DNA of 47,793 bases from Chloroflexota bacterium (lineage in GTDB: Bacteria > Chloroflexota > Dehalococcoidia > Lucifugimonadales > UBA3495). This document shows positions 384 to 46,729 of the stretch, piece after piece (within the stretch, counting starts at the first letter, position 1; every line of letters begins with the position of its first letter). The notes below the pieces were generated by a model. It ran no database searches. It saw only the letters and a list, made by a program, of their open reading frames with translations, and was not told the origin of the DNA. The stretch covers positions 1 to 47,793 of the forward strand of contig JAQBVF010000027.1 in the NCBI GenBank assembly GCA_027623675.1, read 5' to 3'. The translations under genes were made by a program, and so were the position numbers.

Positions 384-2096
384 TCACTTGGCGAGCTCGA
401 CTGTCCAAAGAGCGCTGGCATACGGGAGCAGGGGCCAGGGTTCCCAGGACGCAACGCCCTTGCCAACTCCCCAGGGGGTGTTGGCAGTGAATAGGCTCCA
501 CTCGTAGTTCTCTTCCCTGGCCGCCACGTAAATCTCATGATAGGCGTCATGGCGTTCTTGCATGGTGCCAATCGTGCCAAGATTCTTCACGGTCAAGTCC
601 CTGAGGACCGGGTCGCGAGCGACGTAGGACTCCGCTTCACCATAGTGGCCGTAAGCGATGCTGCCACCGTCAAAACGGTCTTCGTTGGGGCGAATGACGA
701 AGTATCCGGGGACCTCGGCGCCGTGCATCTTGTCCTTGATCGATACAGAGTCACCAACCTCAACTTCGCAGTTGATGCCGAGGTTTTTCTTCCACATGTC
801 GCAAACCAACTGGGCGGCATCCGGAACGAAGGGCAGCTCGGAAGCTTCCCAGGTGAACAGGGTGAAGGGATCGGGGAAGCAGGATCCGTTCGGGCAACCA
901 TCCGCTGCCAATAACTCTTGCGCCTTGGCCGGGTCGAAGGGCCAAGAGTCCAAGTCTGGCTCGTAACCGAGGGCGGACGGGCTAACGTGGGCCCAACCTT
1001 TGGTCTCGGCCACTTCAGGACCGTACAAGGTGTTGGCGATCAACTCTTTGTCGATGCCATAGTTCAACGCCTGCCGTATGCCCTTGGTGAAAGGATACGG
1101 AGTAGATTCATCGAACCCATATTCGGTGATCATGTAGAGGTAAACCGCTTCAGGGGCAAAGACGATCTTGCCGCCGGCGTTCTCTATCTGGTCACGGACT
1201 TCCAGGTTGGCCTCAACCAGATCGACTTCACCAGCCCGCAGGGCGGCTACTCTGGTGGAGAGTTCAGGAATGGCCCTGAGTTCCAGGGTGTTGAACCGGT
1301 GGTCCCGGTTCTCTATGTCCCAGTACCCGTCGAACCGCTCGAATTCCATGAGCGAGCCCTTGTCGTGCTTGACCAGATTGAAAGGCCCAGTGGTACCGGG
1401 GGAGGGGTCGTCGTTGTAACCGTCGCGGCCAACGCTCTCACGATAAGCCTTTGAGAAGATGGTCCCGGACGGGTCCGCGCCCATCTCCGAAAGGTTGAAG
1501 GAAAGGAACATCAGGGGTTCAACGGTGGTAACGCTCACTTCCCCGGAATCGGTCACGATCCATGGCTCAGTGGAACGGGCCAGAGCGCGGACTGAAGGGC
1601 TTACAGCCTCTTCTTCAGCCCTGGGTCCGAACTGCTCCTCCAAGGAGAAGGCCACGTCTTCCGCGGTCAAGATGTCTCCGTTATGGAAGGGGACTCCTTC
1701 ACGGACCTTAAAGCTCCAAGTCAAACCGTCCGGAGTGAAAGTCCAAGATTCAGCGATAGCGGGAACCAGCTCTTTGCCTTGTTTTCCCTGGATGAAGTAA
1801 TCATGAACCAGGCGTTGGTAAACTCCGCCCTCGCCACGAACATCGTGGTCGGTAAAGAGTTCATTGCCCCAGTCAGATGTGGCAACGACCAACGTGCCGG
1901 TGGTCGCTCCTGAAGTTCCCGATGGAGCGGATGTACTCCCTGGCTTGGCCGTGGGGACCGGTCCTCCGGTGCTGGAGCCGGCGTCGGGGACTGCCGTGGC
2001 CGAGCTGCCGCAGGCGACAATCACCACCAGGGCCAACATCATGGCCACCGGCCAGTACCTGGCAACTGACTTTTTTAGGAATCGCGGGATAGGCAT
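384..2096 (-). CDS. ABC transporter substrate-binding lipoprotein, family 5 (peptide/nickel type)
   Basis: SBP_bac_5 motifs (LVPAIAESW...TWSFKVREGVPFHNGD.LTAEDVAFS; GPFNLV; RVAALRAGEVD). Lipobox-like VIVAC followed by an S/T/G/P-rich linker. Start moved to ATG 2096, preceded by AAGGAG. Confidence 0.88.
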   Translation of the reverse strand: MPIPRFLKKSVARYWPVAMMLALVVIVACGSSATAVPDAGSSTGGPVPTAKPGSTSAPSGTSGATTGTLVVATSDWGNELFTDHDVRGEGGVYQRLVHDYFIQGKQGKELVPAIAESWTFTPDGLTWSFKVREGVPFHNGDILTAEDVAFSLEEQFGPRAEEEAVSPSVRALARSTEPWIVTDSGEVSVTTVEPLMFLSFNLSEMGADPSGTIFSKAYRESVGRDGYNDDPSPGTTGPFNLVKHDKGSLMEFERFDGYWDIENRDHRFNTLELRAIPELSTRVAALRAGEVDLVEANLEVRDQIENAGGKIVFAPEAVYLYMITEYGFDESTPYPFTKGIRQALNYGIDKELIANTLYGPEVAETKGWAHVSPSALGYEPDLDSWPFDPAKAQELLAADGCPNGSCFPDPFTLFTWEASELPFVPDAAQLVCDMWKKNLGINCEVEVGDSVSIKDKMHGAEVPGYFVIRPNEDRFDGGSIAYGHYGEAESYVARDPVLRDLTVKNLGTIGTMQERHDAYHEIYVAAREENYEWSLFTANTPWGVGKGVASWEPWPLLPYASALWTVELAK

Positions 2097-2479: not shown

Positions 2480-3043
2480 TCATGTCGGCACTGGGGACAG
2501 CCACGCCTCTCCTATCAGAATGGCTTCCACCTGGGGCGCCGCGGCTAGGGCCAGGACGCGCACGTCGTTGTCGTCCTTCAGATCGGCCAATGGACCCATG
2601 GAGTGGGAGATGACCGCGATCGGATAATCGGGTATCCCCTGGGCCCGGGCCATCCCGCGTCCCGTGGTCTTAACCAGTTTCTCGACCCCAATGCTGGCAG
2701 CCGGGATCCCTGCCTTTTCCATGAGTAATGCGTCGAGCACACTGCCCGACGTGCATGAGCCTCAATCCCCGATCCCGGTGATGACCGCATCACAGGATTC
2801 GACGATCTCGTCCCGTATGGACGCGGGCGCCACATTGCCGATGAAAGGCTTCTTTCGGAACGTCACCGACTCGAAGCTGTACTTCTGCCGCAACAGGTCA
2901 ATCACGGAATTGATGACCCGGTCGCCGTAGGGGCGTCCGTTCCAGATGACGCCCAGGCGCAGGCCGTCCAGGGTTCCGGTCCGTTCGGCCATCATGATCT
3001 TCCCGGTGGCCGGACCGGCGGTTGGATTCAATACTTCTATCAT
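2480..3043 (-). CDS. UGSC-motif selenoprotein (Sec at TGA 2762-2764), ~187 aa, putative thiol/selenol redox protein
   Basis: Minus strand reads ...GGG ATC GGG GAT TGA GGC TCA TGC ACG TCG GGC AGT GTG CTC GAC = GIGD-U-GSCTSGSVLD, joining track ORFs 2762-3043 and 2480-2740 in frame. UxxC motif, hairpin 3' of the TGA, SD AGGAGG before the ATG. Confidence 0.88.
2731..2751 (-). promoter_or_regulatory. Bacterial SECIS-like stem-loop
   Basis: mRNA CGUCGGGCA-GUG-UGCUCGACG: 9-bp stem with one G-U pair. The stem begins 10 nt after the UGA and the G-starting apical loop 19 nt after it. Confidence 0.72.
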
Positions 3044-3111
3044 GGAGACCTCCTATTCGCCGTGATGCGCTAAGGTAAAAATCGAACTGGTCCTGCAAAA
3101 GCTGCCTGCCC

Positions 3112-4224
3112 CTATACGGGGTGAACCGCCACGGTCATCGGATCGGTGGAAACGCCGTAAGGCGCCAGGAAGCACAACCGGGGACCGGCATTGCCGCCGC
3201 CGACCACCACGTAGATGTCGGAGCGTCTCAGCAGCGTGGTGTCGTCGAACATGATTCGGTCGTACTCGTGGGGCTTGAAGACGTAGGCGTAGCGGTCTTC
3301 ATCCCCTGGCTGCACCGCCTGCGCCACACCTGCGAACCCGTCGTATTCCGAAGAATGGAGCCCCCAAAGCCCTCGGCGCTTCAGGTCGGCGACCGAACGC
3401 TTGCAGTTGTCCATCAGGTAGCGGCGAACGTCGTGTTTGCTCCAACCGCGCTGGATGAACAACTCGGCGAAATGAGGCGGGACCAGCAGGATGTAGGTGC
3501 CCCGGTAGAAGTCATAGGTGGAGATGGCGTCGGCCATGGAGTCCAGCATCAGCTCGGGATTGGCCGTGCGCTGGCAGTAGACCTGGTAGGGGCCGGGGTA
3601 GGTGGACACGGCAGTGACCGTGCTCTGCTCCCGGTCGAATCCCAGCATCACGTGCAGCGGGTCCCAGGAAGTTTCCTCGTTCTCGGCGATGCAGTAATGG
3701 CCTCGGCCCGGATTGCCGAACTGGCCGCGCTGGATGCCGTCGGGCCGGGACTCGGTGCAGTTCCAGAACAGCAGACTGATGGCCCTGGCCACGGTGCTGC
3801 TGGGCCGGTTTCCGGCGGAACTCAGCAGGTACATCCCGCTGTTGAAGCCCAGGTCTCTGCCCATCGGGCCGTTGACGATCAACATGGGCCAGGCGCTGCC
3901 CAGGGTGGCCATGTGGTTGAACCGGAAGTCGGGATGGCAGATCGCTTCGACCGAGGCCACCAGCACCGGCATGTACTCCTTCTTGCAGCCGGCCATGACG
4001 GCGTTGATAGCCAGGTGCTCGGCGGTAATCACGCGGTCCCGTTCCGGAACATCTCCCAAAGGCCGGCCGGGTTCTAGTCCCGCGTAATCCAAGAACTCCA
4101 TCACTTTCATCTCGGTGGGCGGCACCACCGGCAGGCCATCAGTCCAGCCCCTTTCGAAATACAGTTCCATGGCTGCGTCCAGGTTTTCCACTGAGATTCG
4201 GTCTGCGGTCAATCGATCGACCAT
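3112..4224 (-). CDS. Conserved protein of the family that partners or fuses with UGSC (seleno)proteins
   Basis: Motifs RGWTDGLPVVPPT, AINAVMAGC, IVNGP, GQFGNPG...AENE, PLHV..GF..EQSTVT. Immediately upstream of and co-oriented with the UGSC gene. SD GAGGTG before ATG 4224. Confidence 0.8.
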   Translation of the reverse strand: MVDRLTADRISVENLDAAMELYFERGWTDGLPVVPPTEMKVMEFLDYAGLEPGRPLGDVPERDRVITAEHLAINAVMAGCKKEYMPVLVASVEAICHPDFRFNHMATLGSAWPMLIVNGPMGRDLGFNSGMYLLSSAGNRPSSTVARAISLLFWNCTESRPDGIQRGQFGNPGRGHYCIAENEETSWDPLHVMLGFDREQSTVTAVSTYPGPYQVYCQRTANPELMLDSMADAISTYDFYRGTYILLVPPHFAELFIQRGWSKHDVRRYLMDNCKRSVADLKRRGLWGLHSSEYDGFAGVAQAVQPGDEDRYAYVFKPHEYDRIMFDDTTLLRRSDIYVVVGGGNAGPRLCFLAPYGVSTDPMTVAVHPV

Positions 4225-4397
4225 GGCGCACCTCACAAATGTTGTTTGGCCAGTCCGAGGAGATCAGTTGGACTGGCCTAGTGCGGGACCCGGCACGGAG
4301 AGTGCGGCGGAGCCTTGGGCTGATGTCACGGACCGCCTTGGGCCAGGGTCCATTGGTACAACTGTAATCGGTATAAACAAGGGTCGACAGATACAGT

Positions 4398-13473: not shown

Positions 13474-13744
13474 CTCTTTCGGGACCTTTAGGACAGCCGC
13501 CATGCTAGATGTGAGGCTGCGAACGCATCATCGGATTCCATATCGGCGAATCTAAGCCCTACGCCGGGGATTCCAGATGAGGGTTCCCACTCAACCAAGA
13601 ATGGTGTAGGCACCGCTGTGCTGATCACTTCCAACGCGCATGCTGTTGGGTAGCGAAAAATGGATCGCGGGTCGCGTTGGGTCCAACATGCTTGGTTCGC
13701 AGGTATCCACCTCGCCGTTGGTATCGGCCCCGCGGATAAATGGT

Positions 13745-14671
13745 ATGACAAACGATGTATTCAAGATTCCCGATCAACCCGGCCTTTGGGTAAAGGGTGG
13801 AGGCTGGCTGTTTGAATGGCTAGAAGTCCCAAGCCAAACTTGGCCGCTTGAATCTGGCGATACCGAAGTCGAGTGGGCTCTGGTCTACAGAATGTCCGGC
13901 GAGCCAAAGTTGGAGGTTTACGATCCTCTTTCTCAGCCCGAGCCGGTCTATCTGGCGTTTGCCGATCTGGGCAAGGCGGTGTGGGACGGTTGTGACCGGC
14001 GATTATTGGACGATTCGAAACTTGATGCAGATGTTCAAGAACGATTTGAGACTGCCGCAGGCCGGTTTATATTCCAATACGGGCCGCCGGTAGATCCAGG
14101 AGCCACCGGCATATCCCCGATGGAGAGGTCGGTGCACCACATGTTGCGTCAGGCACAGTTGGTCGACCTCGCCGTCCGATACCTCCGAGTGCGAAAAGGG
14201 GAGGAGGACACGAATCGACTTCGAAGTTATCTCCAGGCCGCACCGACGGCTGCAACGAAGAATGGCGAGGAACTTTCAGCCGAGTCGCCAATTCCGACAT
14301 TGGACTCATTCTATGAGATAGTGACCGCGGCTGAGGCGATGATTGATGGTCTGCAAACAAGTCAACTGAACCTTGGCGGTCTGGGGCTTGCCGTCCGGCC
14401 GCCCAGGCCTGACGAATCATCGCGGGATTGGACATTTGAACTGCGGTTCGAACATCTATTGAGCGTGATCTGGTATCAAACCCTAAAGTCGATCGTCTTG
14501 GGAACGCTGGTACGCGCCTGCCGGAACGTGCGCTGCCGCAAGCCCGGGCGGTTATTCGAGCCGTCTCGGACGAACCAGTGGTACTGCAGCACAAGATGCC
14601 GCAACACGCATAACGTGTGGATGTTTAGGCATCCCACACAGTCCGGGCGCCTTGACGATGTACTCCCTTGA
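13745..14671 (+). CDS. Hypothetical protein with a C-terminal CGNR-type zinc finger
   Basis: C-terminal RACRNVRC...LFEPSRTNQWYCSTRCRN..NV..FR. Start uncertain (13640/13688/13745). Confidence 0.65.
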   Translation: MTNDVFKIPDQPGLWVKGGGWLFEWLEVPSQTWPLESGDTEVEWALVYRMSGEPKLEVYDPLSQPEPVYLAFADLGKAVWDGCDRRLLDDSKLDADVQERFETAAGRFIFQYGPPVDPGATGISPMERSVHHMLRQAQLVDLAVRYLRVRKGEEDTNRLRSYLQAAPTAATKNGEELSAESPIPTLDSFYEIVTAAEAMIDGLQTSQLNLGGLGLAVRPPRPDESSRDWTFELRFEHLLSVIWYQTLKSIVLGTLVRACRNVRCRKPGRLFEPSRTNQWYCSTRCRNTHNVWMFRHPTQSGRLDDVLP

Positions 14672-22965: not shown

Positions 22966-23034
22966 CAGACCCTCCTAGTTATGTTGTCGTTATATTGTTC
23001 TCAAGGGAAATGTCCGGAGGCGGCTAAACTCGGG

Positions 23035-24201
23035 TCAGCGGTTCCCGGCCAGATAGGAATCGGTGGCCCGTTTCAGGCCGGCCCTACGGTTGGCTTGAAG
23101 CGCTTCCTTCATGCTGGCCGACCGCTGCTGGGAGTCGATGATCCCGGTGAGGCTGCCTTGGTATTGGGGCATGACGTAGCGGGCCATCAACTCATAGCTG
23201 CGGTGCAACTTGTCGCGGGGCGCCCAGTCTTCCGCCCGCAAGAGCAGACCGCCGAACCCGCCGCTGGCTTCCTGAAGGCGCTCGATGCCGGCGATGCAAT
23301 CGTCAGGGGTCCCCACGATCCACTGATTGTGCTCCACCATGTAGTCGACGACCTCGTTGGCGGGAACGTCGGGGATGGGATTGCCGTTGGTGCCGCCGGT
23401 GTATTCCGTCACCACACGGCCTGCGCCAATCCGGATGTCCTCGAATGCCTGCTCCCGGGTTTCGGCCAGATGACACCCAACGGACAACCGCCAGTCTTCA
23501 CGCCGCACGGTCTTCCCGTTGGCCGCCGCCGTCTCTTCGGCGATGGCCCACTGGTCCTTCAAAGAGGTGCTTCTGACGGCGTCGCGAGGCACGCTCAGCG
23601 AGATCACGGAGACCCCGTGCTTGCCGGCCAACAGCACCCCGGACGGGGACTGAACGGAGGCCACGGCCACCGGCAGCGTCGGCTTCTGGTAGGGCCGCAG
23701 CTGCAGCGTGGCGTCTTTCAACTTGAACCAGTCGGTCTCGCAAGTCACCGGTTCGCTGCCATCCAGGAGCCGCATGATCACTCCCAGCGATTCGTCCATC
23801 ATCTCCCGCTGCCGCTCGGGGTCGATGCAGAACATGTTGGCGTCCGACGCCAGAGCGCCGGGCCCAACGCCCAGCATCACCCGTCCGCGGGTCAGGTGGT
23901 CCAGCAACACCATGCGGTTGGCCACCATGTAGGGATGGTGGTAGGGCAGGCTGACCACGCCGGTGCCCAGGCGGATGTGGCGCGTGCGGCCGGCTGCGGC
24001 GGCGATGAATACCTCGGGGGACGCGATGGTCTCCCAGCCGCCGCTGTGGTGCTCTCCGATCCAGGCTTCATCGAACCCCAGGCTATCCAGCCACTCGATC
24101 AATTCCAGGTCGCGTTCCAGGGCCAGAGTGGGGTTCTCGCCCACCCGGTGAAAGGGGGCCATAAAAGTCCCGAAGGTCATGTTGTCAGTAAGGGAAGTCA
24201 A
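23035..24201 (-). CDS. LLM-class flavin-dependent monooxygenase (limonene 1,2-monooxygenase-like)
   Basis: FGTFMAPFH, NPTLALERDLELIEWLD.LGFDEAWIGEHHS, LDHLTRGRVMLGVGPGALASD, RSYELMARYVMP. TTG start with SD GGAGGAG. Confidence 0.9.
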   Translation of the reverse strand: MTSLTDNMTFGTFMAPFHRVGENPTLALERDLELIEWLDSLGFDEAWIGEHHSGGWETIASPEVFIAAAAGRTRHIRLGTGVVSLPYHHPYMVANRMVLLDHLTRGRVMLGVGPGALASDANMFCIDPERQREMMDESLGVIMRLLDGSEPVTCETDWFKLKDATLQLRPYQKPTLPVAVASVQSPSGVLLAGKHGVSVISLSVPRDAVRSTSLKDQWAIAEETAAANGKTVRREDWRLSVGCHLAETREQAFEDIRIGAGRVVTEYTGGTNGNPIPDVPANEVVDYMVEHNQWIVGTPDDCIAGIERLQEASGGFGGLLLRAEDWAPRDKLHRSYELMARYVMPQYQGSLTGIIDSQQRSASMKEALQANRRAGLKRATDSYLAGNR

Positions 24202-24230
24202 TTTGATCTCCTCCGTCCAGTTTGAATCTA

Positions 24231-39034: not shown

Positions 39035-41030
<1,996 letters not shown>

Positions 41031-45109: not shown

Positions 45110-46729
45110 CTAGAAATCCATGGGCGGCATGGCTGGTGCGACAGGCTCTTTCTCGTCAACCTCTGCAATCATGGATTCGGTGGTCAGCACCAACGATGCT
45201 ACGCTGGCCGCGTTCTGGAGAGCCGAGCGAGTTACCTTGACGGGGTCCACGATGCCCCGCTCCAACATTGGGCCGTATTCGCCCAAGTCGGAATCGAACC
45301 CGTAGTCATCGGCTTGGTGTTTCACCCGATCGAGGACCACCGAGCCCTCAAATCCAGAGTTGTTGGCGATATAACGAAGGGGCTCTTCCAGGGACCGGCG
45401 AATGATATCGACACCCACCAGTTCATCCCTAGACATGCCATTCAGGTTGGCCAGAGCTCGCTGGGCCCGCACCAGGGCAACACCGCCGCCTGGAACGATT
45501 CCCTCCTCCACAGCCGAGCGGGTCGCGGAGAGGGCATCCTCTACCCTAGCCTTCCGTTCTTTAAGCTCCACTTCCGTGGCCGCTCCAACTTTGATAACGG
45601 CTACGCCGCCCGAGAGCTTGGCCATACGCTCTTGGAGTTTTTCACGGTCATAGTCCGAGGTGGTTTCTTCGATCTGTGCCTTGATCTGTTTGATGCGGGC
45701 CTGGATCAACTCATCCTTCCCGTAGCCTTCAACGATCGTGGTGTCGTCCTTCGTTGCGGTCACCCTTCTAGCCAGGCCAAAGGCATCCATCTCAGCGGTG
45801 TCGAGTTTCCTCCCGGTCTCATCGCTGATCACGGTGGCGCCGGTCAACAAAGCGATGTCCTCTAACATGGCCTTGCGGCGGTCGCCGAACCCTGGCGCTT
45901 TAACCGCTAGCACATTCAGGGTCCCCCGTAACTTATTCACGACCAGCGTCGCCAGCGCTTCGCCGTCCACGTCTTCAGCAACGATCACGACGTCTTTCTT
46001 TCCGGCTTGCAGCAGCTTTTCCAACACGGCCAGAAAATCGGAAACAGCCGAGATCTTCTTAGTGGTGACAATGATGGTCGGGTTTTCGATCACCGCCTCC
46101 ATGCGGCCGGAATCGGTGATGAAGTACGGAGATATATAACCGCGGTCGAACTGCATGCCTTCGACGTATTCGATCTCATCCTTAAGCCCATTCGACTCTT
46201 CGACGGTGATGACTCCGTCTTTCCCTACCTTCTCCATCGCTTCTGCGATGGTGTTGCCGATGGCGTCTTCGTGGGCTGACAGGCTCGCGACTTGACCGAT
46301 TCGTTCGCGGGTCTCAACCGGTTCGGCCATCCTTTTGACTTCATCGACAACAGCACCGACGGCCGCCTCGATGCCGCGCCTGATGGCCATCGGGTCGGCG
46401 CCGGCCGTTACGTTCTTAAAACCATCATTGATGATGGCCTGCGCCAAGACCACGGAAGTGGTGGTGCCATCACCGGCGTCGTCATTCGTCTTAGCAGCTG
46501 CTTCCTTGAGCAGACGCGCGCCCATGTTCTCAAACTTGTCCGGCAACTCGATCTCTTTGGCGATGGTCACCCCGTCGCTGCAGATCTGAGGCGCGCCGAA
46601 GCTTTTGTCCAAGATGACGTTGCGGCCCTTGGGTCCAAGAGTCACTTTGACGCACTCAGCCAAAGTGTCGATGCCCACTCTGATCGCCCTTCGTGCTTCT
46701 TCAGAACGGGCTAATTGTTTCGCAGGCAT
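45110..46729 (-). CDS. groEL: Chaperonin GroEL (copy 2, 539 aa)
   Basis: Same diagnostic motifs as copy 1. SD AAGGAG. Confidence 0.97.

Follow-up and report, generated by a model that had tools for sequence, protein, structure and literature searches.

Does the minus strand near the start of this contig carry two small genes, or one selenoprotein gene that is split at a selenocysteine codon? And if it is a selenoprotein, what might it do? We analyzed a window of 47,793 nucleotides (the whole stretch of DNA considered here), in which an ORF finder reports two short open reading frames at this locus: 3043..2762 (93 amino acids, ending in GIGD-TGA) and 2740..2480 (86 amino acids, with a GTG start). 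The first-pass annotation had proposed that they are the halves of a gene from the UGSC family of selenoproteins.

The in-frame TGA of the UGSC gene

Translation of the minus strand confirmed that the two ORFs share a frame and that the gap between them is just the TGA and seven codons (GSCTSGS). The read-through gene (2480..3043, minus strand) has 187 codons and a single internal stop, a TGA at 2764-2762 in the context GIGD-stop-GSCTSGSVLD. The true stop is also TGA (2482-2480). The TGA at 2762..2764 would encode Sec94, which places the family's U/C-G-S-C motif at its conserved column, as GD-U-GSC. A Shine-Dalgarno-like AGGAGG (3049..3054, minus strand) precedes the ATG at 3043 with a spacing of 5 nt, and the same motif is found ahead of three orthologs. 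The GTG at 2740 has no Shine-Dalgarno-like site at the usual distance. This GTG is inside a hairpin, and its first base is the final one of the loop. A scan for promoters and terminators found nothing above chance, and there was no match to Rfam in the window.

The read-through protein belongs to the described family: residues 3-176 match PF24696 (142.2 bits, with a gathering cutoff of 25; positions 1-170 of 172 in the model). Its match to the NCBIfam model NF041046 (102.2 bits, E = 2.5e-29) is below the curated cutoff of 125, so we file it in the Pfam UGSC family and consider it related to, but divergent from, the NCBIfam equivalog. It shares with the family a full-length Pfam match, the UGSC motif, a Sec codon with a bacterial SECIS (bSECIS), and a link to the Unknown_1 domain. 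It differs in belonging to a divergent subfamily, with U-GSCTSGSVLD instead of the commoner U-GSC-x-x-C/W-S-V-H-D. As far as the accessible text of these papers goes, UGSC was catalogued as a selenoprotein family in 2007-2008 (PMC1976440, PMC2398784), ranked as one of the commonest selenoprotein families in the GOS survey, with 255 sequences (PMC2398784), and is described as being of unknown function (PMC1976440, and still so in PMC13188914).

The source genome (3.07 Mb, 91% complete, 5.7% contamination) contains all four components of the Sec machinery that the first-pass annotation suggested looking for, each above its cutoff: selA (554.8 bits), selB (347.7 bits), selD (380.3 bits), and selC, a tRNA-Sec with a TCA anticodon (70.4 bits). 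The selD gene (G000:C3:54314, L026) has an in-frame TGA of its own (CAG-U-AAK), followed by a hairpin, and probably encodes a selenoprotein itself. The co-occurrence of UGSC with selA is uninformative, as selA is present in 36 of 41 relatives, among them most of the genomes that lack a UGSC match.

A search of the genome with PF24696 found 8 UGSC genes, and every one of them has a single TGA, located at this motif. More broadly, a profile search against 1.84 billion representative proteins gave 5,836 matches at E = 0.001. Among the best 150 of these that are full-length, the residue at the Sec column is Cys in 146, Ser in 3, and Gly in 1. Sec forms cannot appear in such full-length records, and C stood at this column when the profile was built, so the Cys count leans that way. 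UGSC matches beside partner genes (described below) were read at the DNA level, which avoids this bias, and 76 of 81 have TGA at the motif (2 have a Cys codon and 3 were unread). Nearly all of these homologs carry Cys or TGA at this position, and they do not end there.

Matches to the protein are present in 34 of 41 genomes of relatives (its own included). Within the genus, all 19 other genomes contain family matches (5-12 each), and 3 of the 19 contain close orthologs. These three orthologs (86-89% identity) all keep the TGA. Across the six pairs of the four orthologs, dN/dS is 0.024-0.093 for codons 95-180, versus 0.137-0.191 for codons 1-93. The region past the TGA is under purifying selection, and the selection is stronger there than before the TGA. 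In the same study, a second sample yielded a contig that covers this stretch with 3 differences and has an intact TGA (the best-matching assembly is a possible source of our sequence and was left out). One groundwater run also covers the TGA, with a flank too short to count.

In a phylogenetic tree of 46 chosen sequences, the protein is in a clade of 13 that comprises 8 Sec forms and 5 Cys forms (support 99/93), apart from the six paralogs from its own genome that were included. The Sec and Cys labels require 6 changes on this tree, in which several long branches are unsure.

The hairpin after the TGA (2731..2751, minus strand) has a 5' arm at 2751-2743, a GUG loop at 2742-2740, and a 3' arm at 2739-2731, with 9 base pairs including one G-U. 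The first-pass annotation described this stem and its G-starting loop correctly but placed the hairpin 19 nt downstream of the TGA. That is the distance to the loop; the stem itself begins after 10 nt. In PMC13188914, the part of the text that covers bSECIS elements gives a loop of 3-9 nt, a stem of 4-16 bp, a G in the first two loop positions, a distance of 16-37 nt from the UGA, and an energy of -7.5 kcal/mol or lower. The hairpin agrees with all of these (GUG loop, 9 bp, 19 nt, -15.0 kcal/mol).

Taken alone, the hairpin is only modestly above chance. When synonymous codons were shuffled, 43 of 2000 sequences had an equal stem length and 115 of 2000 had an equal or lower energy; 6 of 200 dinucleotide shuffles folded as well (z = -2.25). 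Such a stem is present in 3 of the 308 long ORFs in the genome that end with TGA.

The evidence across homologs is far stronger than the evidence from the single sequence. The 5-pair core of the hairpin is unbroken in 33 of 33 genes, with two-sided changes at 3 of the 5 pairs (RNAalifold). For the full 9-pair stem, 83.9% of cells are paired, compared to 76.3% in shuffles, and the outer three pairs and the innermost pair are often open. In the covariation test, 0 of 500 shuffles did as well, which is not a probability, as the structure came from our own sequence and the related rows were included. Among 68 distinct TGA genes from other phyla, 65 form a stem with at least 5 pairs, and in 62 the loop starts after 18-19 nt. 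Also, among the six ortholog pairs, the hairpin codons (98-105) have 0-1 synonymous differences, versus a dS of 0.26-1.09 in the rest of the 3' half.

We considered whether the TGA could be a real stop, in a nonsense pseudogene or between two small genes, or a sequencing error. The modest signal from the lone hairpin would be compatible with this, as would the score below the NF041046 cutoff, and our evidence for Sec insertion is indirect. But a real stop would leave the same TGA in all 8 paralogs, in three orthologs, and in 76 of 81 matches from other phyla without explanation. It also conflicts with the stronger purifying selection after the TGA, with the preservation of the TGA in the second sample, with the single domain that spans this codon, and with a second "start" that lacks a ribosome-binding site and sits within the hairpin. 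We consider a real stop to be very improbable. Still less credible is an alternative genetic code in which TGA is read as Trp or Gly. The open frame would fit, and nothing further does: TGA ends 308 of the 1350 long ORFs in the genome, as well as the UGSC gene itself, the genome encodes tRNA-Sec (TCA), and the homologs have Cys at this column.

It is very likely that 3043..2480 is a single gene of the UGSC family in which the internal TGA is decoded as selenocysteine. We infer that SelB almost certainly binds the hairpin and that tRNA-Sec reads the UGA. The Cys column, the four sel genes, the hairpin, and the family match all support the original proposal that this organism decodes Sec and that standard gene callers split the gene.

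The partner gene and the genomic neighborhood

Just upstream of the UGSC gene (by 68 nt), on the same strand, is a gene at 3112..4224 that encodes 370 amino acids from the ATG at 4224 (the frame is open from a GTG at 4236). The first-pass annotation did not note this gene. The protein has no family match in Pfam or NCBIfam. It contains the conserved motifs GWTDGLP and AVMAGC; its AINAVMAGC is the motif of the domain Unknown_1, which is given as A-V/I-N-x-V-M-A-G-C in Fig. S1A of PMC2398784. The same source, in its accessible part, already reports the link between UGSC and Unknown_1, which has thus been in print since 2008. The partner has at least 6,828 relatives, and those with names are from Dehalococcoidia/Chloroflexota.

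The partner is adjacent to, or fused with, all 8 UGSC genes of this genome. Among the best 80 of 607 partner loci, which come from many phyla, UGSC is found on the same strand and no more than 1.5 kb away at 70; of the remaining 10, some are on short contigs. Fusions tell the same story. Partner sequence is present in 21 of the 150 UGSC matches, and in 18 of the 19 that are longer than 350 amino acids; conversely, UGSC is present in 85 of 120 listed partner proteins of over 700 amino acids. The partner also has conserved cysteines: the Cys of AMAGC is kept in 93 of 96 sequences and a second Cys in 85 of 96. We are confident that the UGSC protein and its partner act together, and the linkage and the fusions predict that they probably bind each other as well.

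The family also has some unusual members. In the same genome, UGSC and the partner are naturally fused in one gene (G000:C46:13390-15189, L008), where the motif is the variant H-U-GGC, and another gene of the partner family (G000:C26:103092-103970) has no UGSC match beside it. Many UGSC-partner fusions have 700-1100 amino acids (P0313-P0409); the named ones are from Clostridia/Oscillospiraceae, and several contain fibronectin type III domains. We checked four long fusions that have no match to C-G-S-C, and they suggest that some have lost the motif.

A structural model of the partner, folded as one whole chain, is confident (pLDDT 93.1). It had no match at Z of 5 or above among 48,161 solved chains, a result that does not show a new fold, and only unnamed clusters in the ESM Atlas. 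Searches of solved structures by sequence, with UGSC, the partner, or PrdB-like proteins as queries, returned nothing beyond noise from coiled coils or designed proteins.

Across 88 neighborhoods, there is no third conserved gene. The commonest named neighbor is a short-chain dehydrogenase, at 14 loci; other recurring neighbors are various dehydrogenases, luciferase-like monooxygenases, CoA-transferases, ThDP enzymes, and transporters. In our window, the gene downstream of UGSC (384..2096, minus strand) starts about 380 nt away and encodes a family 5 solute-binding protein (PF00496, 188 bits). The gene order elsewhere suggests that it is linked to the UGSC module. In a related genome (G003), the genes that come after the orthologous UGSC-partner pair encode a UGSC-partner fusion, two family 5 binding proteins, two permeases, and an ATPase. 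Our binding protein is 81% identical to the second binding protein in this complete ABC operon. At another locus (L072), UGSC-partner pairs are interleaved with four family 5 binding proteins. We found no permease in the 383 nt between our binding protein and the end of the contig. Relative to G003 (L185), two genes are missing at positions 2097-2479 of the window: the UGSC-partner fusion and one of the binding-protein genes. We looked at 2120-2478 for a remnant of this fusion, which G004 and G015 also have, and there was no match at the DNA level.

Elsewhere, the window has two genes for chaperonins (Cpn60) that share a strand and are separated by about 4 kb (39035-40750 and 45110-46729), and two long ORFs without Pfam matches (13640-14671, 343 amino acids; and 22981-24225, 414 amino acids). 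The latter overlaps an ORF of 388 amino acids on the other strand.

Relationship to PrdB and GrdB, and a possible electron supply

We compared a profile of UGSC to 34 PrdB-like or GrdB-type sequences from this genome and its relatives. The alignment (hhalign probability 95.3, score 57) covers 82 columns and places UxxC on UxxC. With a profile of 8 sequences, the probability of the same alignment is 91.1. In controls, the best of 66 families of paralogs from this genome reached a probability of 5.9 and a score of 25.8, the reversed profile reached 0.9 and 17.8, and the profile with the motif masked reached 88.2 and 44.0. Curated models for GrdF/GrdB/GrdH or PrdB match 2 of the 7 natural UGSC-domain proteins that we scanned, weakly (E = 6e-5 to 3e-3) and in the same region. 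Our own UGSC protein does not match PF07355, TIGR01918, or TIGR04483. Judging from these alignments, the Sec region of UGSC is remotely homologous to the Sec region of PrdB/GrdB (strand-UxxC-helix-ExxG). We did not find this link in the parts of the UGSC literature that we could access, where coverage of subscription journals was thin.

As with PrdB and GrdB (or GrdF and GrdH), UxxC is at the homologous position and the Sec protein is paired with a larger second subunit. However, just 82 of about 220 PrdB columns align. Also, the UGSC partner is not like GrdE or PrdA, and our UGSC protein lacks UxxCxxC. We considered the partner as a homolog of GrdE/PrdA and rejected this, as the hhalign probability against a GrdE-type profile of 9 sequences is 0.09. 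PF09338, the pyruvoyl proprotein of PrdA/GrdE, was not found in the 91%-complete genome. The same genome, with no PF09338 match, has three PrdB-like genes with U-P-x-C (G000:C18:39698, C5:32017, and C10:79320; L055-L057). According to the portion of PMC11229817 available to us, the Sec of PrdB attacks the alpha carbon of the substrate held on the pyruvoyl group of PrdA, and changing U to C abolishes activity. Because the partner is unlike GrdE/PrdA and PF09338 was not found, the Schiff-base activation of the Grd and Prd systems is not transferable to UGSC, and we borrow the Sec chemistry alone.

In the structural model of UGSC (pLDDT 93.6), for which U was replaced by C, each of five strands leads into a helix. 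Residue 94 is at the start of the helix that follows strand 3. The best fold matches are generic Rossmann-like or flavodoxin-like alpha/beta domains, over residues 23-186, with Z of 8-10 and none outstanding. There was no thioredoxin-family entry among the matches listed, which does not exclude a thioredoxin fold. UGSC does resemble the Trx-like and Prx-like UxxC selenoproteins in having a Sec/Cys pair two residues apart at the start of a helix and in being fused to parts of the thioredoxin system, but it differs in its predicted Rossmann/flavodoxin-like domain and has no match to thioredoxin-family models from Pfam.

Some fusions point to a source of electrons. Among 120 listed long partner proteins, 12 end with a thioredoxin-reductase domain with CxxC, and in one protein (P0271), UGSC itself is fused to such a domain. 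A module with C-P/E-T-C precedes the partner at 18 of 80 loci, and 2 of the 5 that we tested match redoxin models. The thioredoxin module is in none of the partner genes of this genome that we examined, and we saw no thioredoxin gene beside our UGSC gene. Another UGSC module in the genome (G000:C17:90927, L179) lies directly before genes similar to NuoE, NuoF, and NuoG (of the formate dehydrogenase type), and these might be the electron source for that copy.

Possible functions of the UGSC module

By analogy to PrdB/GrdB, we propose that UGSC and the 370-amino-acid partner form a two-subunit Sec-dependent reductase, with Sec94 as the nucleophile and recycling by thioredoxin. We give this proposal, together with the whole mechanism described next, a probability of roughly 45%. 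The selenolate of Sec94, at the start of a helix in the predicted alpha/beta domain, would attack a substrate that is activated by the partner. Cys97 would then resolve the adduct to give a selenenylsulfide, which the thioredoxin/thioredoxin-reductase system would reduce, perhaps via the near-invariant Cys of the partner. From the gene context, our copy may act on a small organic compound that the neighboring family 5 ABC transporter imports; the 8 paralogs may serve different substrates.

Two other roles would also involve Sec insertion. UGSC could be a general thiol/selenol oxidoreductase or an antioxidant protein that acts on peroxides, sulfoxides, or disulfides, and the partner could be either a target or a regulator of it. 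This would suit the "Trx-like" label in the literature, yet the model of UGSC matches Rossmann/flavodoxin-like domains across residues 23-186, and the genome has eight divergent paralogs. Each of these has its own partner, and most are surrounded by genes for catabolism or transport, which fits better with substrate-specific enzymes than with a housekeeping antioxidant. We consider this role unlikely. A slightly poorer prospect is that Sec94, Cys97, and the partner's Cys serve as ligands of a metal or an iron-sulfur cluster, or carry sulfur or selenium. A NifU-like domain with CxxC is fused to UGSC in 3 of the 11 UGSC proteins that we scanned (C-terminally in P0180, P0215, and P0286; P0152, P0191, and P0224 look similar by eye), and U-x-x-C-x-x-C is present in 36 of the 68 TGA genes from loci across phyla; our copy lacks the third Cys (it has Gly100), as well as the His that is common at position 103. 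Structural comparisons hint weakly at the same role. The UGSC model matches a chain of the MCR activation complex (Z = 10.0, rmsd 3.3, 130 residues aligned), which holds Fe-S clusters (PMC12176620), and the partner's best Foldseek match is a subunit of class I fumarate hydratase (TM 0.28, E = 5.8e-4). But both are within the generic range: a protein designed de novo has the same Z of 10.0, and the fumarase match has Z of 3.9. Fe-S assembly genes do not recur in the neighborhoods, and in the PrdB/GrdB homologs, Sec is catalytic.

We return to the proposed two-subunit reductase. As the family has been catalogued since 2007-2008, the Sec call is correct but ordinary: it mends one annotation, and the pairing with Unknown_1 had already been published. 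The constant partner, the PrdB/GrdB-like site, and the fusions to the thioredoxin system are more useful, because they indicate what to co-purify and which electron donor to add, and so the function of UGSC becomes testable. Since natural Cys forms are found in the same clade, such studies do not need Sec insertion.

More speculatively, and with less confidence than in the reaction itself, UGSC and its partner may represent a widespread new class of two-subunit selenoenzymes. These would combine a stripped-down Sec domain of the PrdB/GrdB type with a partner, possibly of a new fold, that replaces the pyruvoyl subunit, and they would be driven by thioredoxin. With 5-12 copies per genome in this genus of Dehalococcoidia, they might cleave or reduce varied substrates, and the copy described here might act on the compound that a family 5 ABC transporter brings in. 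If each paralog does have another substrate, then a reductive, selenium-dependent family would join the paralog expansions of these bacteria.
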